IMG/VR virus record: IMGVR_UViG_3300035493_000027 | DNA from: a virus | Reading direction: 5' to 3' (one strand) | Length of the DNA: 41,509 nt | Shown here: piece after piece, positions 3,617-41,509 of the stretch | How the letters are laid out: every line of letters starts with the position of its first letter | Numbering within the stretch: position 1 is the first letter of the stretch | Notes under the pieces: generated by a model | What the model saw: only the letters and a program-made list of their open reading frames with translations | What the model was told of the DNA's origin: nothing | Databases searched by the model: none | Made by a program: the position numbers and the translations under genes

Positions 3617-6013
3617 ATGAGCCTGATCTCCACGACCATTCCCAACTTGGTGAATGGGGTGAGTCAGCAGCCCTATGCGATGCGTCTGGCCTCTCAATGC
3701 CAGGAGCAAATCAACGCCCACTCATCTGTGGTCGAAGGGCTGCGGAAGCGCCCCGGTACTCGCCATCTGGCCAAGCTGCCCAACATTACCGGCAGCCTGT
3801 TCATCCATACCATCAACCGCGACGCTGTCGAGCAGTACATCGTCATCATCCAGAACGGCAACCTTCGCGTGTTCGACCTGAACGGCGTGGAGAAGACCGT
3901 GACGTTCCCCAACGGCAAGACCTACCTGTCCTCGGCCAACCCGGCAGAGGAGTTCCGGTGCGTCACCGTTGCGGACTACACCTTCGTGCTGAACACCAAG
4001 GTCGCCACCAAGGAATCCACCACGCTGACCCCTAGCCGTCCCTACGAGGCTCTGGCCTGGGTCAAGCAAGGTGCCTACGGGGCCAAGTACATCCTGACGG
4101 TGGATGGTAAGACGGCCAGCTTCACGGCACCTGATGGTTCCCAGGCTGCGCACGTCAACCAAGTCACCACCGATCACATCGCCACCCAACTCACCAGCGG
4201 CATCAGCTCTGCGCTAGGCACAGGCTGGTCTGTTGTCCGGTATGGCTCGACGATCCACATCAAGCGTAACGATGGGGCTGCCTTCACGATCAGCTCCGAT
4301 GACTCCATCGGGGACAATGGCCTGGAGGTCATCGCCCAGAAGGCCCAGCGGTTCTCGAACCTCCCGGCCCGCGCAGTGGCTGGCTTCACGGTGGAGATCG
4401 TGGGCGACCAGTCGTCCTCGTTCGACAACTACTACGTCAGCTATGACGTGACCGGCACCGGCACCAGCCAGGGTGTCTGGAAGGAGACCCTCAAGGGAGG
4501 CGAGTCGGTCGGCCTGGACGCGGCCACCATGCCGCATGTGCTGATCCGCAACGCTGACGGGACGTTCACCTTCAAGCGCGCCGATTGGGAGAACCGGAAG
4601 GTAGGTGATCTGGACAGCAACCCGCTGCCGTCCTTCGTCGGGCGACCGCTCAACGACATCTTCTTCCACCGTAACCGCCTGGGGTTCATCAGCGACGAGA
4701 ACATCGTCTTCTCCCGCTCCGGTGAGTACTTCACGTTCTTCCGGGGCACGGCAACGTCGACCCTGGACACCGATCCCATCGACATCGGGGTGTCCCACGT
4801 CAAGGTCTCGATCCTGCGCCATGCGGTGCCGTTCAACGAGACCATGCTGCTGTTCAGCGACAAGACGCAGTTCCAGCTCGGGAACGCTGACGTGCTCACC
4901 CCAGACACGATCTCGGTGAATCAGACGACGGAGTACGAATGCTCTCTCCGTGCAAAACCTGTGGGGGCCGGGCGATACATCTACTTCGCGGTCAACCGGG
5001 GCACCTTCACGGGGCTGCGGGAGTACTTCGTGGATGGCGAGACCGAGTCCGAAGACGCGGCTGACATCACCGGCCATGTGCCGAAGTACATCCCAGGTGG
5101 GGTCTTCAAGATCGCTGCCAGCTCCAACGAGGATTGCGTGGCGGTGCTCTCGGATCAGCAGCGCAACTGCGCCTGGGTCTACAAGTACTACTGGAGCAAC
5201 GGCGAGAAGCTGCAGTCGTCTTGGTCGCGCTGGGAGTTCCACCCAAGCGATCAGATCCTCAACTGCGACTTCATCGAGTCCCGCCTGTACTTCGTCATCC
5301 GGCGAAGCGATGGGCTTCACCTTGAGGTCATCAACCTCGAACCTGGGGCAATCGAGCCGAACTGGAACATCGCCGTTCACCTCGACAGCATGGTTACCGA
5401 TCAACGCTGCACGGTGATCTTCGAGGAGAACGACCCGGCCCTGGAGGCGGACGACATCACCCAGGTCACGCTGCCCTACAAGCTACGCGCTGGTGAGACG
5501 GTTCAGTTGGTCACCGCGCCTGGAGGCTCCCGAGTTCCTGGGGTCGTGGTGAGCGACTACACCTTGAACAACAGCGGGACGTTCTCGGTGCTGAGCTTCA
5601 AGGGTGACTGGCGGGGCCAGCCGTTCTACATCGGCAAGCCGTACACCTTCCGCTATCGGTTCTCCACCCTGGTCATCAAGGAGGAGGCCATCGGCGGGGG
5701 CCAGTTGACCATCGGTGAGGGCCGCATCCAGCTCCGCAGAATGTCGGTGCTCTACAACAACGCCGGGTACTTCCGGGCCGAGGTGACGCCGTTCCGCAGG
5801 GATACCTACAGGTACATCTTCTCGGGGCGTGTGGTCGGCTCCGGTCGGAACATCCTGGGCCAAGTGGCTATCGAGGAAGGCAAGTTCAGCTTCCCCGTCA
5901 TGGCCAAGAACGATCAGGTCGAGATCGAACTGGTCAACGACAGCTACCTCCCATGCTTCTTCCTGAGCGCCGAATGGGAGGCGTTCTACGTCATTCGTTC
6001 AAGGAGACTGTGA
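3617..6013 (+). CDS. Tail tubular protein B (T7 gp12-like)
   Basis: 798 aa. N-terminal NLVNGVSQQPYAMRLASQ..EQINAHSSVVEGLRKRPGT is typical of gp12 family proteins. Position after gp11. Confidence 0.93.
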   Translation: MSLISTTIPNLVNGVSQQPYAMRLASQCQEQINAHSSVVEGLRKRPGTRHLAKLPNITGSLFIHTINRDAVEQYIVIIQNGNLRVFDLNGVEKTVTFPNGKTYLSSANPAEEFRCVTVADYTFVLNTKVATKESTTLTPSRPYEALAWVKQGAYGAKYILTVDGKTASFTAPDGSQAAHVNQVTTDHIATQLTSGISSALGTGWSVVRYGSTIHIKRNDGAAFTISSDDSIGDNGLEVIAQKAQRFSNLPARAVAGFTVEIVGDQSSSFDNYYVSYDVTGTGTSQGVWKETLKGGESVGLDAATMPHVLIRNADGTFTFKRADWENRKVGDLDSNPLPSFVGRPLNDIFFHRNRLGFISDENIVFSRSGEYFTFFRGTATSTLDTDPIDIGVSHVKVSILRHAVPFNETMLLFSDKTQFQLGNADVLTPDTISVNQTTEYECSLRAKPVGAGRYIYFAVNRGTFTGLREYFVDGETESEDAADITGHVPKYIPGGVFKIAASSNEDCVAVLSDQQRNCAWVYKYYWSNGEKLQSSWSRWEFHPSDQILNCDFIESRLYFVIRRSDGLHLEVINLEPGAIEPNWNIAVHLDSMVTDQRCTVIFEENDPALEADDITQVTLPYKLRAGETVQLVTAPGGSRVPGVVVSDYTLNNSGTFSVLSFKGDWRGQPFYIGKPYTFRYRFSTLVIKEEAIGGGQLTIGEGRIQLRRMSVLYNNAGYFRAEVTPFRRDTYRYIFSGRVVGSGRNILGQVAIEEGKFSFPVMAKNDQVEIELVNDSYLPCFFLSAEWEAFYVIRSRRL

Positions 6014-18113: not shown

Positions 18114-18511
18114 CCCGTTGAATCGACGGGTGAGCTTCAGGGGAACCCCTTGGTTTTTGGCAAAAATCCGAGACGGTATAACGCCGGAGCTGCACCCTCA
18201 GTTCCCCCCGTGGGGGTGGGCACCTGGGGCTGGCGACACATGCCACGACACAAACGCCCCGCAAAGCCGCGCCGTTGCTGGCCTCGCAAAGGATTAGGAA
18301 TCCATCGGCCTATCTAGTGGGCGCGCTGCCTGGGCAATCCTGGGGCTTTCCTGGGCGTTCTAGTGGGCTGGCCTGGTGCTTGGCCTTGCGCTTTTTCTTG
18401 TGTGGGCTTGTTGTGTCGTGTCTTATTTTTTTCCTTCGACCACAATATCTAGTGGTTCCCCTGCAGTCACACCACAAGCCATAGCGTTATGCCGCACTCC
18501 ACGCAAAAGAC

Positions 18512-18540
18512 TTGACGAACTATCCACCGTCGCATAAGAT
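18512..18540 (+). promoter_or_regulatory. Sigma70-type early promoter candidate (TTGACG-17 nt-TAAGAT)
   Basis: Best -35/-10 pair with correct spacing in the 664-bp non-coding region upstream of the first large early gene. The 17-nt spacer is an M2 copy. Confidence 0.55.
18518..18538 (+). promoter_or_regulatory. M2 motif copy (AACTATCCACCGTCGCATAAG), function unknown
   Basis: Fills the spacer of the sigma70-like promoter. Confidence 0.6.
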
Positions 18541-21454: not shown

Positions 21455-21790
21455 ATGGCTCTGACAGCTCTCGCAGTGATCGAGGAAGTAATCAAGCGTT
21501 TCCGCGACTTCGATCAGGAGATGCAGATGCAGACTGCCCAGACATTCATCGCGGTCGCTATGCAGCCCGGCATCACCATGAAGGAGCTATCGGAGAAGGT
21601 TGGCATTTCTCAAGCGTCCTGCAGCCGCAACGTCTCGGCCCTGTCCCGAGTCCACCGGCTGAACAAGCCAGGAATGGATCTGGTTGTGGCTGCAGAAGAT
21701 CCGATGGAACGCCGCCGCAAGGTAGTCAAGCTGACCCCGAAAGGACAGCGCCTTGCCGAGTCACTGACCCAACTTATCGAGGAGAAGTAA
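21455..21790 (+). CDS. Winged-helix (MarR-like) transcriptional regulator; candidate lysogeny regulator
   Basis: HTH ITMKELSEKVGISQASCSRNVSAL followed by the wing DPMERRRKVVKLTPKGQRL. Strong RBS TAGGAGGT. Adjacent to the tRNA-Leu/integrase module. Confidence 0.8.
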   Translation: MALTALAVIEEVIKRFRDFDQEMQMQTAQTFIAVAMQPGITMKELSEKVGISQASCSRNVSALSRVHRLNKPGMDLVVAAEDPMERRRKVVKLTPKGQRLAESLTQLIEEK

Positions 21791-21797
21791 CAGAGGT

Positions 21798-21883
21798 TGG
21801 TGCTCGGAGCGGGACTCGAACCCGCAAGACCGTAGGTCGGGGCATTTTAAGTGCCCTGTGTCTACCAATTTCACCACCCGAGC
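21798..21883 (-). tRNA. tRNA-Leu (anticodon TAA), complete, antisense to all protein genes
   Basis: The reverse complement folds as a type II tRNA. Acceptor GCTCGGG/TCCGAGC, 3-bp D stem GTG/CAC, anticodon arm GGGCA-CTTAAAA-TGCCC, variable arm GACC-tac-GGTC, T arm GCGGG-TTCGAGT-CCCGC, ACCA end. Confidence 0.9.
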
Positions 21884-21895
21884 GAGGAGAGAACC

Positions 21896-22969
21896 ATGCC
21901 GGTAAAGCCAAGAGGTCGTGGCTTTGAGGCCACAGTCAACCACCAAGGAGGAAAGTACCGGAGGCAATTCGCAACCCAGGTCGAAGCCGAAGCCTGGGAG
22001 AAGGCAACCAAAGCCGCCCTCATGAGGGGCGAGATGGTAGCAGAAAGCAGCGGCTCAGCCAATGGAAACCCGAGCAGTCTCAAGGAGTTGGCCGAGCTGA
22101 CCTACAAACGATTCTGGCAGGGTCGCCCTGGAGGAGAGACCGCCCTGCGCAACGCCAAGCAATGCCTCGCCATCCTCGGTGAGGGCATGACCCCAGGCTC
22201 AGTTACGGAGCAGCGCATCGACGACATGGTGTTCGCATTCGAGCAGCAGGGTCTGTTCGACAGCACCATCAACCGGAAGCTCTCCGCTCTGTCCAAGATG
22301 CTGACCTTCGCCTATGAGCGAGGCTACATCCCACGCAAACCCAAGATCGAACGCAAGAAAGAACCCCAGAACCGCATCAGGTACTTCGACGAGGTCGAGG
22401 AGCAGATGCTGCTGGACACCTTCAACCACTTCGGGCTTCACGACATGGCCGACTTCTGCATCGTGGCCATCGACACCGGGATGCGGGTTGGTGAGATCAT
22501 GCGGATCGAGGATCGTGACGTAGCCAATGGGCTGGTCTCCGTGTGGCGCACGAAGAACGGCAAGGCCCGATCCATCCCGATGACCAAGCGCGTGGCTGAG
22601 GTACTGGAGCGCCGCTTTAAGGAGGAGCGTCGTCGGCTCAACACCATCGGCAACGTGAAGGCGTTCGACGGCTGGAACCACAGCAAGATCAGAACGCTGT
22701 GGGAGAAAGCCCGCCGCCACATGAAGATGATGGGCGACCCTCAGTTCGTCCCGCACGTCATGCGGCACACCTTCTGCTCCCGGCTGGTTCAGCGTGGAGT
22801 GGACATCGTGACGGTCTCGAAGCTGGCCGGTCACAGCTCCATCGTAGTCACCATGCGGTACGCTCACCTCGCTCCCGATAGTCTGGCCCATGCCATTCGG
22901 AAGCTGGAAGAACCCGCAAAAGATGTAAATCCCCAAGCTCGACACACGACACAAGTTGTGTCGCGGTAG
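21896..22969 (+). CDS. int: Tyrosine integrase (site-specific recombinase)
   Basis: TGMRVGEIMRI, HVMRHTFCSRLVQRGVDI, LAGHSSIVVTMRYAHL (R..HxxR..H..Y catalytic pattern). ATG 21896 with GAGGAG upstream is preferred because the longer ORF start at 21851 lies inside the tRNA. Confidence 0.93.
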   Translation: MPVKPRGRGFEATVNHQGGKYRRQFATQVEAEAWEKATKAALMRGEMVAESSGSANGNPSSLKELAELTYKRFWQGRPGGETALRNAKQCLAILGEGMTPGSVTEQRIDDMVFAFEQQGLFDSTINRKLSALSKMLTFAYERGYIPRKPKIERKKEPQNRIRYFDEVEEQMLLDTFNHFGLHDMADFCIVAIDTGMRVGEIMRIEDRDVANGLVSVWRTKNGKARSIPMTKRVAEVLERRFKEERRRLNTIGNVKAFDGWNHSKIRTLWEKARRHMKMMGDPQFVPHVMRHTFCSRLVQRGVDIVTVSKLAGHSSIVVTMRYAHLAPDSLAHAIRKLEEPAKDVNPQARHTTQVVSR

Positions 22970-22985
22970 TGTCGAGAGCCGCGAC

Positions 22986-23006
22986 CATTGCGATAGTGGA
23001 TTGATT
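22986..23006 (-). promoter_or_regulatory. M2 motif copy on the minus strand (CAATCCACTATCGCAATG core)
   Basis: The only inverted copy. Lies in the left arm of a bulged hairpin GTGGaTTGATT...AATCAACCAC. Confidence 0.45.
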
Positions 23007-23099
23007 GAACCCCAATAAAATCAACCACTTACGCCAGCAGTAGTCCTCCGCAACAGACTTAAAAGGTCTTGCATCCGACTACCCACTGGCACATTGAAT

Positions 23100-23126
23100 A
23101 ACCCGGCATCGTCCGGGTTTTCTTTT
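23100..23126 (+). terminator. Intrinsic terminator between integrase and RNAP gene
   Basis: AACCCGG-catcgt-CCGGGTT followed by TTCTTTT. Confidence 0.75.
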
Positions 23127-23132
23127 CCCATC

Positions 23133-23152
23133 AACTATCCACTGTCGCAACC
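23133..23152 (+). promoter_or_regulatory. M2 motif copy (AACTATCCACTGTCGCAACC), function unknown
   Basis: Between the terminator and the M1 promoter of the RNAP gene. Confidence 0.55.
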
Positions 23153-23220
23153 TTTGCAGACCGCTCGACACAAGACACGGGCGGTTTGTGTCGTCACGGC
23201 TCTCTGACGCCCTGCTTGGC

Positions 23221-23243
23221 AATTACCACACAGTCTTGGAGCA
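23221..23243 (+). promoter_or_regulatory. Phage RNAP promoter, M1 family (AATTACCACACAGTCTTGGAGCA), directly upstream of the RNAP gene
   Basis: Full M1 core. 58 nt upstream of the RNAP ATG. Confidence 0.85.
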
Positions 23244-23300
23244 CCGAGAGGTGACCTCCGAGGCCGGTTCCTTAAAGCCAAACTCAGAGAGATCCAATAG

Positions 23301-25826
23301 ATGACTTCAATCATCACCAACCAACTGATTCAGGAAATTGAGAACAACCAAGAGTGGCAAGAGAAGTTCGACCGTCAGGTGGAACTTGAGGAGAAGATGA
23401 GAGGCATGGGCGTCGACCGTCACTGGTCGGAGGTAGCCAAGGCCAGGGAGCGTGGTCAGGAAACCAGCGTCCGCTCCGTCCGCCGACTGATGAACTCGTC
23501 AGTCGCCAAGATCGCAGAAGGCATCCGCCAGTTCATCGAGAGCTGCGAGGCTGGCAAGGCTGGCCGCAAGTACAGCGCATACCCACTGCTCAAGCAGATC
23601 GAACCCGAGGCCGCAGCCCTGATCACCGCACGGGTGGTACTGGATGGCGTGGCCAAGGGTGACCTGCTGGTCCCCCTGGCTCGCCGAGTTGCGTCCCTGA
23701 TCGAGGACGAGCTGGCCTTCCGCGAGTTCGCCAAGGCTGACCGCAAGACCTACGACTGGTTGGTCAAGCGCGAGAAGCGAGTCAACGGCAGCAGCTACCG
23801 CCGCCAGCGGCTGACCATGCTGCACAACATGGAGGCCCGCAACATCGCATGGCAGGAGTGGACTGCCCGCGAGTCCCTGCTGGTCGGCTCCAAGCTGATC
23901 GAGATCATGACCGAGACCACCGGCCTGATTCAGAAAGTCACCCGCACCGTGGACGTGAAGCGCCAGGAGGTGGCAATCGAGGCCACCCCTGAGACCATCG
24001 CCTGGATCAACGAGGAGAACAACCGCTGCGAAGCTCTCTCCCCGGTGTACCTGCCCACCATCATCCCGCCTCGCCCCTGGACTTCACCGTTCGAGGGCGG
24101 CTACTGGACTCCGCGTGTCCGCCGACTGGCCCTGGTCAAGACCCACTCGAAGGGGTACTTGGAGGAGCTGGCCGAGCACGACATGCCGGAAGTCTACGAT
24201 GCGATCAACGCCATGCAGCACACCGCCTGGGCCATCAATGGCCGGGTGCTGGAGGTGGTTCGCAACCTGTGGAACAACGGTGCCACCCTGGGTGGTATCC
24301 CTGCGGCTGACGATCAGCCGATCCCGCCGAAGCCCCTGTTCCTTGAGCAGGAGCTGCCCCGCGAGGAGTGGTCGGAGGATCAGGTGCGTCAGTTCAAGGA
24401 GTGGAAGCGCGAGGCAACCGACACCTATGCGTCCAACGCGAAGCTGAAGTCCCTGCGTCTGCAGTTCGCCAAGGTATTGATGATTGCCGAGATGTTCGAG
24501 CACGAGGAGGAAATCTACTTCCCGCACCAGTTCGACTTCCGTGGCCGGGCCTACGCTGTGCCGATGTTCCTGAATCCCCAGGGCAGCGACATCGCCAAGG
24601 GTCTGCTGGAGTTCGCCAATGCGGTAGCGATCAACGACGAGGAAGGTGCCAACTGGCTGGCCATTCACGGTGCCAACAGCTACGGCTACGACAAGGTCTC
24701 CCTGGCTGAGCGTGTGCGCTGGGTGCAGGAGAACGAGGCCGAGATCCTGGCCTGTGCTGCTGACCCGTACAGCCACAGCATGTGGGCCAAGGCCGACAAG
24801 CCCTTCCAGTTCCTGGCGTTCTGCATCGAGTGGGCTGAGTTCAAACGCGAAGGCTACGGCTACCTGTCGACCTTGCCCATCGCAATGGACGGTAGCTGCA
24901 ACGGGCTGCAGAACTTCTCGGCGATGCTGCGTGATGCCATCGGCGGCGAGGCCGTGAACCTCGTGCCCCAGGAGAAACCTGCGGACATCTACCAGAAGGT
25001 GGCCGACCGCGTGGTGCTGCGTGTCGAGGCTGACGCTGTTGGCCAGGACGAGGTGTTGGCGAAGCTGGCCCAGGGCTGGCTCAAGCACGGCATCAACCGC
25101 AAGGTGTGCAAGCGCCCGGTGATGACCCTGGCCTATGGTGCCAAGGAGTTCGGCTTCAAGACCCAGGTGTTCGAGGACACCGTCATGCCGTACAAGCTGA
25201 AGGCTGGCAAGGAGTTCCCCTGGGAAGGCTCCGGCTGGGCTGCCGCTGAGTACATGGGCAAGCTGATCTGGGAGTGCGTCGGTGAGGTGGTGGTCGCTGC
25301 TCGTCAGGCTATGGACTGGCTGCAGAAGGCTGCGCGTCTGGCCGCGAAGGAAGGACTGCCGGTACGTTGGAACACCCCGGACAATCTGGTCGTGCTCCAG
25401 GCGTACCCGAAGATGCTGACCGAGCGCATCGACCTGACCTTCGGGGGCAGCCGTCACCTGCTCACCGTGGCAGTCAGCCCGACCACCGAGCTGGATCGCA
25501 ACAAGCAAGCCAACGGGATCAGCCCGAACTGGGTTCACTCGATGGACGCCAGCCACATGCGGGCCACTGTCCGCCGCTGCTGGAACGAGGGGATGCGCAG
25601 CTTCTCCCTGATCCACGACAGCTACGGCACCCACGCCGGGAACGCCTGGGCACTCGCCAAGTTCCTGCGTGAGGAGTTCGTCACCATGTACGAGGAGGAT
25701 GTGCTGGAAGACTTCAAGCGAGAACTGGAGCGGCAGCTCCCCGAAGGATCAGAGCTTGATCCTCTACCCCCGAAAGGCAACTTGGACTTGGCTTTGGTGC
25801 TGGAGTCCGCGTTTTTCTTTGCCTGA
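23301..25826 (+). CDS. T7-like single-subunit DNA-directed RNA polymerase
   Basis: FDFRGRAYAVPMFLNPQGSDIAKGLL, DGSCNGLQNFSAMLRD, LIHDSYGTH and a C-terminal FFFA match T7 gene 1 protein motifs. Confidence 0.98.
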   Translation: MTSIITNQLIQEIENNQEWQEKFDRQVELEEKMRGMGVDRHWSEVAKARERGQETSVRSVRRLMNSSVAKIAEGIRQFIESCEAGKAGRKYSAYPLLKQIEPEAAALITARVVLDGVAKGDLLVPLARRVASLIEDELAFREFAKADRKTYDWLVKREKRVNGSSYRRQRLTMLHNMEARNIAWQEWTARESLLVGSKLIEIMTETTGLIQKVTRTVDVKRQEVAIEATPETIAWINEENNRCEALSPVYLPTIIPPRPWTSPFEGGYWTPRVRRLALVKTHSKGYLEELAEHDMPEVYDAINAMQHTAWAINGRVLEVVRNLWNNGATLGGIPAADDQPIPPKPLFLEQELPREEWSEDQVRQFKEWKREATDTYASNAKLKSLRLQFAKVLMIAEMFEHEEEIYFPHQFDFRGRAYAVPMFLNPQGSDIAKGLLEFANAVAINDEEGANWLAIHGANSYGYDKVSLAERVRWVQENEAEILACAADPYSHSMWAKADKPFQFLAFCIEWAEFKREGYGYLSTLPIAMDGSCNGLQNFSAMLRDAIGGEAVNLVPQEKPADIYQKVADRVVLRVEADAVGQDEVLAKLAQGWLKHGINRKVCKRPVMTLAYGAKEFGFKTQVFEDTVMPYKLKAGKEFPWEGSGWAAAEYMGKLIWECVGEVVVAARQAMDWLQKAARLAAKEGLPVRWNTPDNLVVLQAYPKMLTERIDLTFGGSRHLLTVAVSPTTELDRNKQANGISPNWVHSMDASHMRATVRRCWNEGMRSFSLIHDSYGTHAGNAWALAKFLREEFVTMYEEDVLEDFKRELERQLPEGSELDPLPPKGNLDLALVLESAFFFA

Positions 25827-25847
25827 CGCTATCCACTAGTGCATAGA
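25827..25847 (+). promoter_or_regulatory. M2 motif copy (CGCTATCCACTAGTGCATAGA), most palindromic copy
   Basis: Begins 1 nt after the RNAP stop. CTATCCACTAGTGCATAG is a palindrome except for two positions. Confidence 0.6.
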
Positions 25848-35232: not shown

Positions 35233-35531
35233 TCGAGAGCCTGGAAGCCAACGTACTCCAGTGGGCGCAGGACCGGGGCATCTTCGCGAAAGCCACCCCG
35301 GTTAGCCAGTGGGACAAGACCCATGAGGAAGTCATGGAGCTGTTCACCGGCATCGTCGCCAAAGACCTTGACGAGATCGAGGACGCAATCGGGGACATCG
35401 TAGTGACCCTGATCATCCAGGCGCACATGCATGGCCTGACTTTGGGCCAGTGCCTCGCCTCGGCCTACGACCAGATCAAGAACCGAACCGGAAAGATGAT
35501 CAACGGAGTTTTCGTCAAAGATGCACCTTGA
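35229..35531 (+). CDS. mazG: MazG-like nucleotide pyrophosphohydrolase
   Basis: HEEVMEL...EIEDAIGDIVVTLII (EExxE..D metal motif) and a C-terminal IKNRTGKMINGVFVK. Confidence 0.85.
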   Translation: MIESLEANVLQWAQDRGIFAKATPVSQWDKTHEEVMELFTGIVAKDLDEIEDAIGDIVVTLIIQAHMHGLTLGQCLASAYDQIKNRTGKMINGVFVKDAP

Positions 35532-37284
35532 GACCTACCACGGTCTCACCCTGGACAATGGGCGTGATGCCCGACTGACAGCCCTCGCAGGAGACCTCCT
35601 GCGGGGGTTTTATCTTTCTGGGGGTGAGACTTTCCAACGCGCCTTTGCGCGCCCCGCGCTGGCGTTCTGCAAGGGAGACCTGCAGTTCGCCCAGGACATC
35701 TACGACGATGTCTCCCGTGGCTGGGCCATGTACTCCAGCCCGATCCTGAGCAACGCCCCCATGCCGGGCGAGCTGCCCAAGGCCATGCCGATCAGTTGCT
35801 TCCTGTCGTTCGTACCGGATACCCGCGAGGGTCTGGTGCAGCATCAGGTCGAGCTGGCTTGGCTGTCCATGATGGGCGGTGGTGTCGGCGGTCACTGGGA
35901 TCTGGTGCGTGCTGTGTCCGACAAGTCGGTCGGCCCGCTGCCGCACATCAAGATCGCCGATAGCGCCGTCGAAGGGTTCCGCCAGGGCAAGACCCGCAAG
36001 GGTTCCTATGCGGCGTACCTCTCGATTTCCCATCCAGATGTCGTCGAGTTCATGAACATTCGCCTCCCAACCGGGGGTGACGTGAACCGCAAGTGCTTCA
36101 ACATCCACCACGCGATCAACATCACCGATGACTTTATGGCTGCTGTTTTCGCTGGTCGATCTTGGGAGCTTCGCTGCCCTCATAGCGGCGCTGTGGTTGA
36201 AACAGTGGATGCGCGAGAACTGTGGCAGTCGATCCTCGAAGTTCGCTTCCGTACCGGCGAGCCGTACCTGAACTTCATCGACACAGCGAACCGTGCGCTG
36301 CCCGAGGCCCAACGCGCCCTGGGGCTGCGAATCCATGGCTCAAACCTGTGCAACGAGATTCACCTACCGACCGACGCCGAGCGCACGGCTGTGTGCTGCC
36401 TCTCGTCGATCAACCTTGAGAAGTTCGACGAGTGGAGCAAAGACCCGCGCTTCGTGCATCGTTGGGTTCGGTTCCTCGACAACGTGCTGGACTACTTCAT
36501 CGAGCACGCCCCGGACGTAATGAGCCGTGCGGTGTACTCGGCCATGCGTGAACGGGCCATTGGTCTGGGCGCTATGGGCTTCCACTCCCTGCTGCAGAGC
36601 AAGCGGGTGCCGTGGGAGTCGGTCATCGCCAAGTCCATGAACCGCCGCATCTTCGCCAAGATCCAGGCCGACGCCATTGAGGCAAGCCAAGAGCTGGCCC
36701 TGGAGCGCGGCGAGGCACCGGACATGGTGGGAACTGGCCGTCGCAACAGCCACCTGCTGGCCATCGCACCGAACGCCAACAGCGGCCTGATCTGCGGCAC
36801 CAGTCCGTCCATCGAACCGCTGCGCTCGAACGCCTTCACCCAGCGCACCCGTGCTGGTTCCCATCTGGTGAAGAACCCGCACCTTGAGGCGCTGCTGGAA
36901 TCCCTCGGCCACAACACCGACGAGGTCTGGCAGTCGATCATCCTGCACAAAGGGTCGGTCCAGCACCTGGACTTCCTCGACGAGTACGACAAGGAGGTCT
37001 TCAAGACCGCCTTCGAGCTGGACATGCGGTGGGTCGTAGACCTCGCTGCTGATCGCCAGGAGCACATCTGCCAGGGCCAGAGCCTGAACCTGTACTTCCC
37101 GTTCGGTTCCGAGCGCCGCTACGTCAACGAGGTTCACCTCATGGCGTACCAGCGGGGACTCAAGGGCGTGTACTACCTGCGCACCGATGCCGGGTTCAGT
37201 GGGGACAAGGTCAGCCAGAAGATCGAGCGCAAAGCACTGAAAGACTTCAACGCAGAGGAGGAATGCCTAGCATGTCAAGGCTGA
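35521..37284 (+). CDS. nrdA: Class I ribonucleotide reductase alpha subunit, no ATP-cone
   Basis: SSPILSNAP, GSNLCNEIHLP (active-site Cys/Asn/Glu), the GVYYLRT tyrosine pair and a C-terminal CLAC redox pair. 587 aa starting directly with the catalytic core. Confidence 0.92.
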   Translation: MHLETYHGLTLDNGRDARLTALAGDLLRGFYLSGGETFQRAFARPALAFCKGDLQFAQDIYDDVSRGWAMYSSPILSNAPMPGELPKAMPISCFLSFVPDTREGLVQHQVELAWLSMMGGGVGGHWDLVRAVSDKSVGPLPHIKIADSAVEGFRQGKTRKGSYAAYLSISHPDVVEFMNIRLPTGGDVNRKCFNIHHAINITDDFMAAVFAGRSWELRCPHSGAVVETVDARELWQSILEVRFRTGEPYLNFIDTANRALPEAQRALGLRIHGSNLCNEIHLPTDAERTAVCCLSSINLEKFDEWSKDPRFVHRWVRFLDNVLDYFIEHAPDVMSRAVYSAMRERAIGLGAMGFHSLLQSKRVPWESVIAKSMNRRIFAKIQADAIEASQELALERGEAPDMVGTGRRNSHLLAIAPNANSGLICGTSPSIEPLRSNAFTQRTRAGSHLVKNPHLEALLESLGHNTDEVWQSIILHKGSVQHLDFLDEYDKEVFKTAFELDMRWVVDLAADRQEHICQGQSLNLYFPFGSERRYVNEVHLMAYQRGLKGVYYLRTDAGFSGDKVSQKIERKALKDFNAEEECLACQG

Positions 37285-37451
37285 AGAACGTCGAAGTTCG
37301 CCCGTTAGGAATGCCCGGAAAATGTCGTGGATGTGAGGGAAAGATAGAGCCACACGTTGAGAGCGCGGTAGTCGTAAAGACCGCGCGTGGGCCAGTAATC
37401 CTCTGTGAGAGTTGTGTTGAAGCTATTAAGGAGGAAATGTGCCATCTCTAA
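37272..37451 (+). CDS. Small CxxC...CxxC zinc-ribbon-like protein between nrdA and nrdB
   Basis: CRGCEGK...CESCVEA. Lower-GC insert. Start 37263 or 37272. Overlaps the GTG start of nrdB. Confidence 0.5.
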   Translation: MSRLKNVEVRPLGMPGKCRGCEGKIEPHVESAVVVKTARGPVILCESCVEAIKEEMCHL

Positions 37452-38407
37452 CGGAAGTCTCTACGACTTACAAACCGTTCCACTACCCCGAGTTCGTCAA
37501 CCACGCCATCGACCATGAGTCCCTGTTCTGGGGCGAGTGGGAGGCATCCCTGCAGCGTGACGTGAACCAGTGGAAGGACGGGACGATCACCCCGGTCGAG
37601 AAGAACCACATCACCCAGATCCTGCGCCTGTTCACCCAGAGCGACCAGATCGTGGGCGGTTCCTACGTCGACGTGTTCCTGCCGTACTTCAAGAACAACG
37701 AAGCCCGCATGGCGCTGCTGTCCATCGCCAACCGGGAGTCGACCCACATGCGCGCCTATGCGCTGCTGAACGACACCCTCGGCCTACCCGAGAGTGAGTA
37801 CCGGGCGTTCCTTGAGTACGAGGAGATGGCAGACAAAGCGGAGTTCATGCAGGACTTCGCCGTGGTTCCAGGCCCGATGCAGATGGGACTGAACATCGCC
37901 CGCACAGTGATGAACGAGGGTATGAGCCTGTTCTCGGCCTTCGTCCAGCTCCTGAACTACCAGCGCCCCGAGGCTGGCTCGAAGATGCTGGGCATGTGCG
38001 AGATCGTCGAATGGTCGATCCGCGACGAGACCAAGCACGTCGAGATCATGGCGGCGCTGTTCCGGCGTCACTGCGAGGAGCACCCGGAGATCGTCACAGA
38101 TGCGTTTAAGCGGGCGATGTACGGGATGTACCGCCAGGGTGTCACCCTGGAGGATCGCTTCATCGACCTGTCGTTCGCCCTGGGTGGGCCGAGGGCGCTG
38201 ACCCCCGAGGAGGTCAAGCAGTACATCCGCTTCATCGCGGATCGCCGTCTGGTTCAGCTCGGCCTCAAGCCGAACTGGGGGATCGAGAAGAACCCGTTGC
38301 CGTGGGTCGACCACATCGTCTCCGGTGACAACCAGAAGAACTTCTTCGAGGGCCGTGTGACCGACTACAACCACAAGGGTATGGAGGGTGACTGGGGGTG
38401 GGAATGA
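37439..38407 (+). CDS. nrdB: Class I ribonucleotide reductase beta subunit; GTG start
   Basis: Ferritin-like di-metal ligand motifs RESTHMRAYALL and IRDETKHVEIM. AAGGAGG 4 nt upstream of the GTG. Confidence 0.92.
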   Translation: MPSLTEVSTTYKPFHYPEFVNHAIDHESLFWGEWEASLQRDVNQWKDGTITPVEKNHITQILRLFTQSDQIVGGSYVDVFLPYFKNNEARMALLSIANRESTHMRAYALLNDTLGLPESEYRAFLEYEEMADKAEFMQDFAVVPGPMQMGLNIARTVMNEGMSLFSAFVQLLNYQRPEAGSKMLGMCEIVEWSIRDETKHVEIMAALFRRHCEEHPEIVTDAFKRAMYGMYRQGVTLEDRFIDLSFALGGPRALTPEEVKQYIRFIADRRLVQLGLKPNWGIEKNPLPWVDHIVSGDNQKNFFEGRVTDYNHKGMEGDWGWE

Positions 38408-41327: not shown

Positions 41328-41489
41328 ATGGCTGACGAAGCTCAACCGAAAGTCACCAGCCAGGAAACCAAAGGGGGTCGCCGCAAGGCGGCCCCTTCTG
41401 TTTCTGCGGCTGAAACCAACAAGCAACCCCAAGAGGCCAGCAAGCGCGTGGAGAAGACCGGCAGCGGCCTCGTGATCGTTTACCACTAA
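41328..41489 (+). CDS. 53-aa basic protein, tandem copy 2 (identical)
   Basis: Identical sequence. Preceded by GAGGAGAACCAA, the same RBS context as the scaffold gene. Confidence 0.55.
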   Translation: MADEAQPKVTSQETKGGRRKAAPSVSAAETNKQPQEASKRVEKTGSGLVIVYH

Positions 41490-41509
41490 GAGGAGAACCA
41501 AATGGCTGA

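Follow-up and report, generated by a model that had tools for sequence, protein, structure and literature searches.

The window analysed here is the whole 41,509-nt stretch of the virus record IMGVR_UViG_3300035493_000027 from IMG/VR. The element in question is the junction at positions 22938–23300, which connects a tyrosine integrase gene (int, 21896–22969, + strand; Pfam Phage_integrase, E = 2e-25) with the gene for a T7-type single-subunit RNA polymerase (RNAP, 23301–25826, + strand; Pfam RNA_pol, E = 3e-112, and RPOL_N). A gene for a MarR-like regulator and a phage-borne tRNA-Leu gene precede int, and the junction itself contains an intrinsic terminator (T4) and a promoter for the phage RNAP (phi1), in the order host promoter P3, MarR, tRNA-Leu (− strand), int, T4, phi1, RNAP. 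The MarR, int and RNAP protein calls agree among Pfam, NCBIfam and PHROGs. Our analysis indicates that the junction is very probably a phage attachment site (attP, about 22938–23204) that adjoins the signals controlling RNAP expression.

Positions 1–127 of the window are repeated exactly at 41383–41509. Because of this exact 127-nt terminal overlap, we regard the window as a circular assembly, i.e. a free phage genome of ∼41,382 bp and not a prophage. Its full-length alignment partner, in permuted order, is phage LUZ100 (OP329100.1), which has the same gene order and an int–RNAP stretch that is 93% identical and aligns without indels (LUZ100 coordinate + 19,140 = window coordinate). The window is an unintegrated, circularly assembled genome of a LUZ100-like temperate T7-like Pseudomonas phage.

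Prophage junctions and the attachment core

Prophage junctions were found through the proviruses in IMG/VR and a metagenome scan; loci of relatives are designated below by L numbers. A scan of genome contigs with the RNAP returned three loci, distant or partial, and no Pseudomonas prophages. Among the IMG/VR proviruses related to the window, three stop at the int stop codon and three, two of them on the same contigs, open with the start codon of RNAP. In an isolate genome, a fourth provirus retains host DNA on both sides and has RNAP and int at its opposite ends. On the RNAP side, the host DNA contains a tRNA-Cys gene and, after it, the 5' half of a tRNA-Leu(UAA) gene that ends in ...GGGACTTAAAA and runs into GGTCTTGCATCC... 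and from there into T4, a copy of a motif termed M2, a palindrome (palindrome 2), phi1 and RNAP. On the int side, the 3' end of int leads through palindrome 1 and an inverted M2 copy to ...GCAACAGACTTAAAA and the 3' half of the tRNA, which ends in CCA. Put together, the 5' half at this left attachment site (attL) and the 3' half at the right one (attR) make a perfect 87-nt tRNA-Leu(taa).

The same joint recurs with three different host tRNA-Leu 5' halves and with two further host 3' halves. It is found exactly at GACTTAAAA in the attL of L011, L012, L014 and L017 and in the attR of L009, L036, L037 and L038. Since joints with several host tRNA-Leu halves fall at this sequence, we place the core at the GACTTAAAA in positions 23056–23064 (−4 to +4 from the core centre), 87 bp past the int stop at 22969. 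This 9-bp identity block occurs once in the window, corresponds to the tRNA-Leu(UAA) anticodon loop and is surrounded by an imperfect inverted repeat (GCAACAGAC / GGTCTTGC, 23050–23072) whose inversion is about TTAAAA, the candidate overlap region. An earlier note on this DNA, which described the junction as a densely structured insulator of the RNAP gene, missed that it is an attP: the core lies between the inverted and the distal M2 copies and the region is split on integration.

ARAGORN detected no tRNA-Leu at any attL or attR joint, and the P' arm of the phage, on the RNAP side of the core, encodes no tRNA 3' half. The host tRNA-Leu(UAA) gene is split and is not rebuilt. After integration, the RNAP end of the prophage keeps the P' arm, on which T4 lies between the proximal and the distal M2, with palindrome 2, box 2 and phi1 beyond them. 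The int end keeps the P arm with palindrome 1, box 1, the inverted M2 and a consensus site for integration host factor (IHF), and it also holds the phage tRNA-Leu(UAA), the MarR gene and the early sigma70 promoters. The hosts predicted to be lysogenizable are those with the core in tRNA-Leu(UAA).

In one metagenome contig (L036, 3660–3860), a complete tRNA-Leu(UAA) gene lies past the attR joint, from which it is separated by ∼110 nt of unrelated DNA; this layout points to an insertion into the same tRNA site that was either in tandem or earlier.

Repeats arranged around the core

Distances are given from the core centre at 23060. The outermost element of the P arm is a distal repeat cluster (palindrome 1, 22938–22976, −122 to −84) in which two CGACAC units are followed by two GTGTCG units; it contains the palindrome CGACACAAgTTGTGTCG (22947–22963), and the last ∼30 nt of int hold these repeats. 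Next come box 1 (GAGAGCCGCGAC, 22974–22985, −86 to −75; GAGAGCCGTG in LUZ100, L036 and L038) and an inverted M2 half-site (ATCCACTATCGCAA, 22988–23003, − strand, about −62) inside a hairpin-forming stretch (fold z = −4.3). They are followed by a perfect IHF consensus, WATCAANNNNTTR (AATCAACCACTTA), at 23019–23031 (+ strand, −41 to −29). This site, a consensus match alone, lies 25 bp from the core and is the only one on either strand of the window, where 0.21 would be expected. Closest to the core is a degenerate inverted partner (GCCAGCAGTAGTC, 23033–23045, − strand, −27 to −15) of the proximal M2, with which it forms a dyad around the core; in the predicted fold 23033–23045 pairs with 23077–23090.

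In the P' arm, the proximal M2 half-site (GACTACCCACTGGCACA, CTATCCAC in LUZ100; 23077–23093, + strand, +23) precedes T4, and the distal M2 half-site (AACTATCCACTGTCGCAA, 23133–23150, + strand, +79) follows it. The distal repeat cluster of this arm (palindrome 2, 23164–23193, +104 to +133) is a hairpin of the form CGACACAA-N12-TTGTGTCG, with the arms of palindrome 1 occurring again at 23166–23173 and 23186–23193; in L011, L014 and L017 the arms are kept and the spacer varies. Box 2 (GTCACGGCTCTC, 23193–23204, +133 to +144), the inverted partner of box 1 with 92% complementarity, closes the array. The six elements listed in the earlier note, i.e. the palindrome with its recurring arms, the inverted boxes, the inverted M2, the terminator, the direct M2 and the phage promoter, all lie where that note had put them.

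These repeats appear at similar distances from the core in relatives whose Int proteins are 44–58% identical and whose surrounding DNA is beyond alignment: clade-specific GTGGC-type repeats or palindromes are found at about −120 to −85 and +110 to +130. P-arm repeats are present in L053 (−120 to −95), L052, L055 and L057, inverted M2 half-sites at −59 in L055 and L057, and palindromes at +112 to +127 in L053 and L052. The proximal M2 is kept at +22/+23 in LUZ100, L052, L055 and L057, with symmetric M2 pairs at about −22 and +23 in L053 and L055. The distal M2 stands at +78/79 in the window, LUZ100, L053, L052 and L055 and at +99 in L057. The phage promoter, in contrast, has no fixed place relative to the core, its distance ranging from +133 to >+200.

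It is hardly credible that the repeats are chance matches or duplication relics without present function and that only the core, T4 and phi1 matter. Taken singly, an 8+8 palindrome is indeed within chance (four perfect ones in the window versus a shuffle mean of 3.4). The P arm is also poorly kept relative to LUZ100, as 20 of the 23 intergenic differences fall in it. The recurrence statistics speak otherwise: CGACACAA-N12-TTGTGTCG with ≤2 mismatches occurs twice against 0.01 expected, M2 has 15 position weight matrix matches in the window against 0.95 in shuffles, eight of the nine CGACACA copies fall into three clusters, and the IHF consensus is solitary, as described above. Furthermore, the positions are kept across clades whose flanking sequences no longer align. 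The 23 differences are substitutions in the 331 nt of 22970–23300 (LUZ100 3830–4160); the 20 in the P arm lie at 22982–23049 and the remaining three in the P' arm, so that the int-side arm changes much faster than the RNAP-side arm.

The inverted arrangement could also act at the level of RNA. In transcripts of the unintegrated genome that read through T4, 22969–23001 would pair with 23137–23210 into an interrupted duplex, processed e.g. by RNase III, which would resemble the T7 early-mRNA processing sites or lambda sib retroregulation. We consider such a duplex improbable, and give equally little credence to the related idea that the P/P' dyad serves as a lambda sib-like RNA sensor of integration state that marks int–RNAP read-through RNA for processing or decay; if it did, the fate of int and RNAP mRNA would be set by integration state. 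The 281-nt region folds at −113.7 kcal/mol versus −73 for shuffles (z = −8.3; −8.1 in a second run), four other relatives in the attP form have z values of −6.8 to −4.2 with 16–48 pairs across the core, and the long-range stems are impossible both in T4-terminated transcripts and in lysogens, where the arms are at opposite ends of the prophage. However, complementarity is expected anyway from inverted copies of a constrained DNA motif, and the M2 consensus is kept far from attP. L057 has the sites without excess folding (z = −0.1), box 1 is kept in L053 without its partner, palindrome 2 by itself shows no unusual stability as RNA (z = −0.5) and the junction contains no Rfam family; the two attP-form sequences in the clade are too few for covariation.

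The palindromes, boxes and M2 copies are best read as arm or accessory sites of the attP. As far as their sequences tell, a short core set among some 260 bp of positioned repeats is how an attP with arms is built. Because they keep fixed distances from the core and none of them overlaps phi1, they look like attP arm elements and not like insulators of the RNAP gene. The interpretation in the earlier note is partly supported.

Terminator T4 and promoter phi1

The intrinsic terminator, equivalent to LUZ100 T4, occupies 23100–23129 (+ strand, +40 to +66), with a hairpin at 23100–23119, a T-run behind it and the transcription termination site (TTS) at ∼23125. It has both a hairpin, with a 7-bp stem that includes five GC pairs, and a U-tract in the tail TTTTCTTTT (−12.1 kcal/mol, z = −2.9). 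In LUZ100, T4 terminates at 3985 (window 23125) with an efficiency of 61%, and trap assays of 25 terminators in E. coli, P. putida and P. aeruginosa placed it in the top nine (PMC10204088); the 100-nt fragment tested there differs from the window by 1 nt. L052, L053, L055 and L057 each have exactly one intrinsic terminator 30–60 nt past the core and no sigma70-like site ahead of RNAP.

In the more distant relatives L019 (2700–2860) and L021, three M2 copies lie between the core and the RNAP promoters along with what looks by eye like two tandem terminators; the terminator scan of the L019 junction, which bears the designation L052 there, found one. T4 and the P' arm are overlapped by the counterpart of LUZ100 gp12 (23094–23207; 37 aa, TTG start), which matches no family, whose start is not preserved in L011 and which is probably not a gene.

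The phage promoter at 23221–23241 (+ strand, +161; transcription start site, TSS, at ∼23239–23240) is a copy of motif M1 and corresponds to LUZ100 phi1. M1 occurs five times in the window at ≤3 mismatches, always on the + strand, against none expected, and fits the consensus of LUZ100 phi1–phi8; the 50-nt window of phi1 (23191–23240) is identical in LUZ100. Both the phi1 TSS and the T4 TTS have been mapped in LUZ100 by ONT-cappable-seq, and T4 stops most of the transcripts that start at P3 (Putzeys et al., 2023, PMC10134795). Downstream of phi1, the 5' untranslated region of RNAP (23242–23300, + strand) contains a small hairpin (CACCGAGAGGTG), whose stem is preserved as CACCC/GGGTG in L017.

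Between the terminator and the RNAP ATG there are no sigma70-like sites, even at 8 of 12 matches, which bears out the earlier note on this point. Its description of the RNAP gene as sitting behind a strong terminator, with a promoter for its own product as the only one, likewise agrees with the mapping of T4 and phi1 in the near-identical LUZ100. Host read-through has another source in the lysogen: ahead of the split tRNA-Leu gene, three hosts have a well-formed promoter (TTGCnn-N17-TATAGT, TATATT in one host, followed by G+C-rich sequence) that is directed into attL, T4 and RNAP. The claim that such read-through is stopped was therefore right in spirit, with the host tRNA-Leu promoter, not int, as the source.

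The M2 motif across the genome and the proteins that may read the repeats

In its full form, M2 is an 18-bp palindrome, CTATCCAC-NN-GTGGATAG, with four sites at ≤2 mismatches in the window versus ∼0.01 expected; those at 25829 and 32472 have a single mismatch. Sites of ∼18 bp, mostly intergenic and mostly on the + strand, are at 2977, 15299, 18520, 19437, 25829, 26136, 30846 and 32472. They are placed after the capsid gene, before the terminase gene, in the spacer of an early promoter, just after the RNAP stop and before the genes for the single-stranded DNA-binding protein (SSB) and the DNA polymerase, and the RNAP gene is bracketed by M2 sites. The site in the early promoter forms the −35/−10 spacer of the sigma70 promoter at 18512–18540, the equivalent of LUZ100 P1/P2.

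A MarR-like winged-helix regulator is encoded at 21455–21790 (+ strand; LUZ100 gp10). It scores over the Pfam cut-off for HTH_24 and just under it for MarR_2, matches PHROG 9665 ('transcriptional regulator') with E = 5e-33, and in LUZ100 its gene is co-transcribed with int in the P3 operon (PMC10134795). We tentatively suggest M2 as the candidate site of this protein and the distal CGACACA units as candidate arm-type sites of Int, an assignment resting on few clades. M2 is the better MarR candidate because this pseudo-palindrome also sits in the early-promoter spacer and because its half-site is conserved across clades in the same way as the recognition helix of the protein. The distal units are clade-specific (CGACACA versus GCCACA), as are the N-terminal strands of Int.

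In a purely transcriptional alternative, close to the view of the earlier note and the LUZ100 model, the palindromes and M2 copies would be operators of the MarR-like repressor that control T4 read-through and phi1, with no role in recombination and with the attP core simply situated in their midst. We think it unlikely, while giving it more weight than the RNA-level readings. It would suit the M2 site in the spacer of the early promoter, where operator and promoter overlap, and the 18-bp palindrome, which fits a winged-helix dimer. The recognition helix (SQxSCSRNV) and the M2 half-site are both kept across clades and both changed in L057, and a published hypothesis puts MarR sites on either side of the RNAP promoter (PMC10134795). 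At the junction, however, phi1 is overlapped by no repeat, as box 2 ends at 23204 and palindrome 2 at 23193, 28 bp upstream of the promoter motif. The conserved distances are those to the core and not to the promoter, and half of the elements leave with int to the far end of the prophage, where they are unable to act on RNAP. The M2 copies of the junction keep the left half-site, have at least five mismatches to the full palindrome and lack the 16–20 bp inverted repeat of a MarR-type operator, which the M2 sites at 25829 and 32472 and, by its geometry, palindrome 1 do have. A transcriptional operator array may apply to M2, but it fails to explain the phasing with the core and the departure of elements with int, and the attP reading is preferred for the junction as a whole.

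Other identities of M2 were set aside. DnaA boxes were considered for the resemblance of CTATNCAC to TTATNCACA, but position 1 is never T and position 9 rarely A in the clade, and chance alone often gives 7/9 matches. Against M2 as a second class of phage promoter stand its limited likeness to M1 (CCAC only), the lack of an annotated TSS at the corresponding positions of LUZ100 and the LUZ100 P1/P2 TSS, which fits sigma70 spacing. For the distal M2 as a weak sigma70 promoter, the hexamers in the P1/P2 register are CCCATC/ACCTTT and the best alternative, TTCCCA-N17-CAACCT, is poor, so that this was rejected for the window. In L021, one M2 upstream of RNAP stands, by eye, in a good sigma70-like frame (TTGCAA-N17-TAAAAT), which keeps the promoter idea alive for the wider clade. 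A 'terminator plus M2' module after the RNAP stop was dropped, as the scan found no terminator there.

Several observations weigh against the attP reading. The prophage junctions come from relatives with 89–97% identical Int and not from this exact genome, and lysogeny was never obtained for LUZ100 itself (PMC10134795). The repeats are putative protein-binding sites deduced from their sequence. Full 18-bp M2 palindromes occur far from attP, which is unusual for arm-type sites, and a CGACACA cluster is also found at 18234–18252 (both copies on the + strand) and 18412–18418 (− strand). The N-terminal 80 aa of Int have Arm-DNA-bind_4 as their sole Pfam match, in register and sub-threshold (E = 0.011–1.5), and the single-sequence AlphaFold (AF2) model of Int, with a predicted local distance difference test (pLDDT) score of 39, is unusable for judging an arm-binding fold. 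As regards the proposed control of RNAP, T4 read-through into the gene was not captured as full-length reads in LUZ100 (PMC10134795).

The CGACACA cluster at 18234–18418 lies inside and just past the equivalent of the LUZ100 direct terminal repeat, 140–300 bp upstream of the early promoter. It is explained neither by the attP reading nor by the Int and MarR assignments.

The integrase and the phage-borne tRNA-Leu

In Int, ∼100 N-terminal residues precede the Xer-like core; its tail beyond DVNPQ is not kept in L019. Among the neighbouring small open reading frames, there were no family matches to an excisionase.

A complete phage-borne tRNA-Leu(UAA) gene lies between the MarR gene and int (21798–21883, − strand; found by ARAGORN, Rfam tRNA 53 bits). 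The anticodon of the carried tRNA-Leu is the same as the anticodon within the attP core or the attR joint in all six clades of relatives: the window and L053 pair taa with GACTTAAAA, L052, L055 and L057 pair caa with GATTCAAAA, and L043 pairs tag with GACTTAGGA. This match fits a split-and-replace strategy, and the phage tRNA-Leu(UAA) probably takes the place of the host gene that is split on integration. It is more likely to be a replacement than a marker of the integration site, which corrects an earlier idea.

Relation to other attachment sites

The similarity to LUZ100 (Putzeys et al., 2023, PMC10134795; terminators, PMC10204088) extends from the 93% identical DNA to T4, phi1 and the model of T4 leakage and MarR repression. 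Its description does not mention attP or the bacterial attachment site (attB) and suggests that the tRNA-Leu may have been left behind by imprecise excision (PMC10134795), whereas the present analysis places an attP core between int and RNAP. The main divergence between the two genomes in this region is in the P arm. Elsewhere, the ribonucleotide reductase genes (35521–38407) are intact in the window, encoding a large subunit of 587 aa and a small subunit of 322 aa; because LUZ100 has only a 65-aa remnant there, we attribute the difference to a deletion of ∼2.8 kb in LUZ100.

For the pelagiphages HTVC119P and HTVC200P, the passages considered here (Zhao et al., bioRxiv 10.1101/410191) put attP in the non-coding int–RNAP gap and the core in the middle of a host tRNA-Leu(TAA) gene, which is split and not complemented, all as seen here; a tRNA-Leu encoded by the phage, upstream of int, is 'likely used instead'. 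Their host is SAR11 and the sequences are unrelated, and those passages describe no terminator, self-promoter, arm repeats or MarR. In the cyanophages P-SSP7 and S-TIP37 (Shitrit et al., 2021, PMC8776855), attP is likewise downstream of int, the target is a host tRNA-Leu, and both int and attP are needed for integration. The cyanophage attP has a longer exact match to the tRNA (42 bp in P-SSP7, compared with the 9-bp block here), and no stable lysogeny was seen (PMC8776855), whereas full-length prophages are present in genomes here. Integration of the phages considered here is deduced from prophage junctions, not from experiments. Since pelagiphage and cyanophage attP sites occupy the same position and use a tRNA-Leu target, the design of the attP was already documented. 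What is new is the location of attP for the LUZ100-type lineage; the layout of terminator and self-promoter had been published.

Two better-known systems offer further parallels. Lambda-type attP sites consist of a core plus P and P' arms that carry arm-type Int sites and IHF sites. The junction resembles them in its ∼260 bp of repeats around a short core, the adjacent IHF consensus and the extra ∼100 N-terminal residues of Int, and connectivity across the att site differs by integration state, as at lambda int and sib. It differs from lambda in that the candidate repeats also occur outside attP, a terminator and the promoter of a polymerase gene lie in or next to the P' arm, and the arm-binding domain of Int is sub-threshold. 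The mycobacteriophages treated by Broussard and colleagues in 2013 reportedly show integration-dependent immunity, with attP inside the repressor gene and a protein that is changed by integration. The likeness is that of an attP in the locus controlling lysis and lysogeny, where recombination rewires expression. Unlike in those phages, attP here lies between int and the RNAP gene, and integration alters what is upstream of RNAP.

Proposed consequences for the switch between lysis and lysogeny

The authors of LUZ100 proposed occasional T4 read-through by host RNAP, self-amplification from phi1 and repression by the MarR-like protein in lysogeny (PMC10134795). The positive-feedback candidate switch put forward in the earlier note is reasonable and not new; as this model had been published for the 93%-identical LUZ100, it is a rediscovery. 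Under that published model, host RNAP starting at the early promoters would leak past T4 during infection and allow the first phage RNAP to be made, which would then amplify itself from phi1 and lock in the lytic programme.

With an attP at the junction, integration itself would be part of the switch, as it would remove all phage-borne host promoters from upstream of RNAP. In the lysogen, the sole upstream promoter would be the one belonging to the host's tRNA-Leu gene, blocked by T4, and phi1 would be silent because there is no RNAP. The repeats would serve as protein-binding sites of the attP intasome, and proteins bound to the M2 copies that flank T4 might form a further roadblock.

Marine T7-like phages already provide examples of the general design, and the gain lies in specifics, not in concepts. 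The junction would provide a physical reason why a self-activating polymerase gene stays silent in the lysogen: the phage-borne host promoters are removed and a strong terminator blocks the host tRNA promoter. LUZ100-type phages matter for the safety of phage therapy and as sources of orthogonal RNAP–promoter parts; their attachment site has now been placed, and with it the 260 bp to keep or remove when such phages are engineered.

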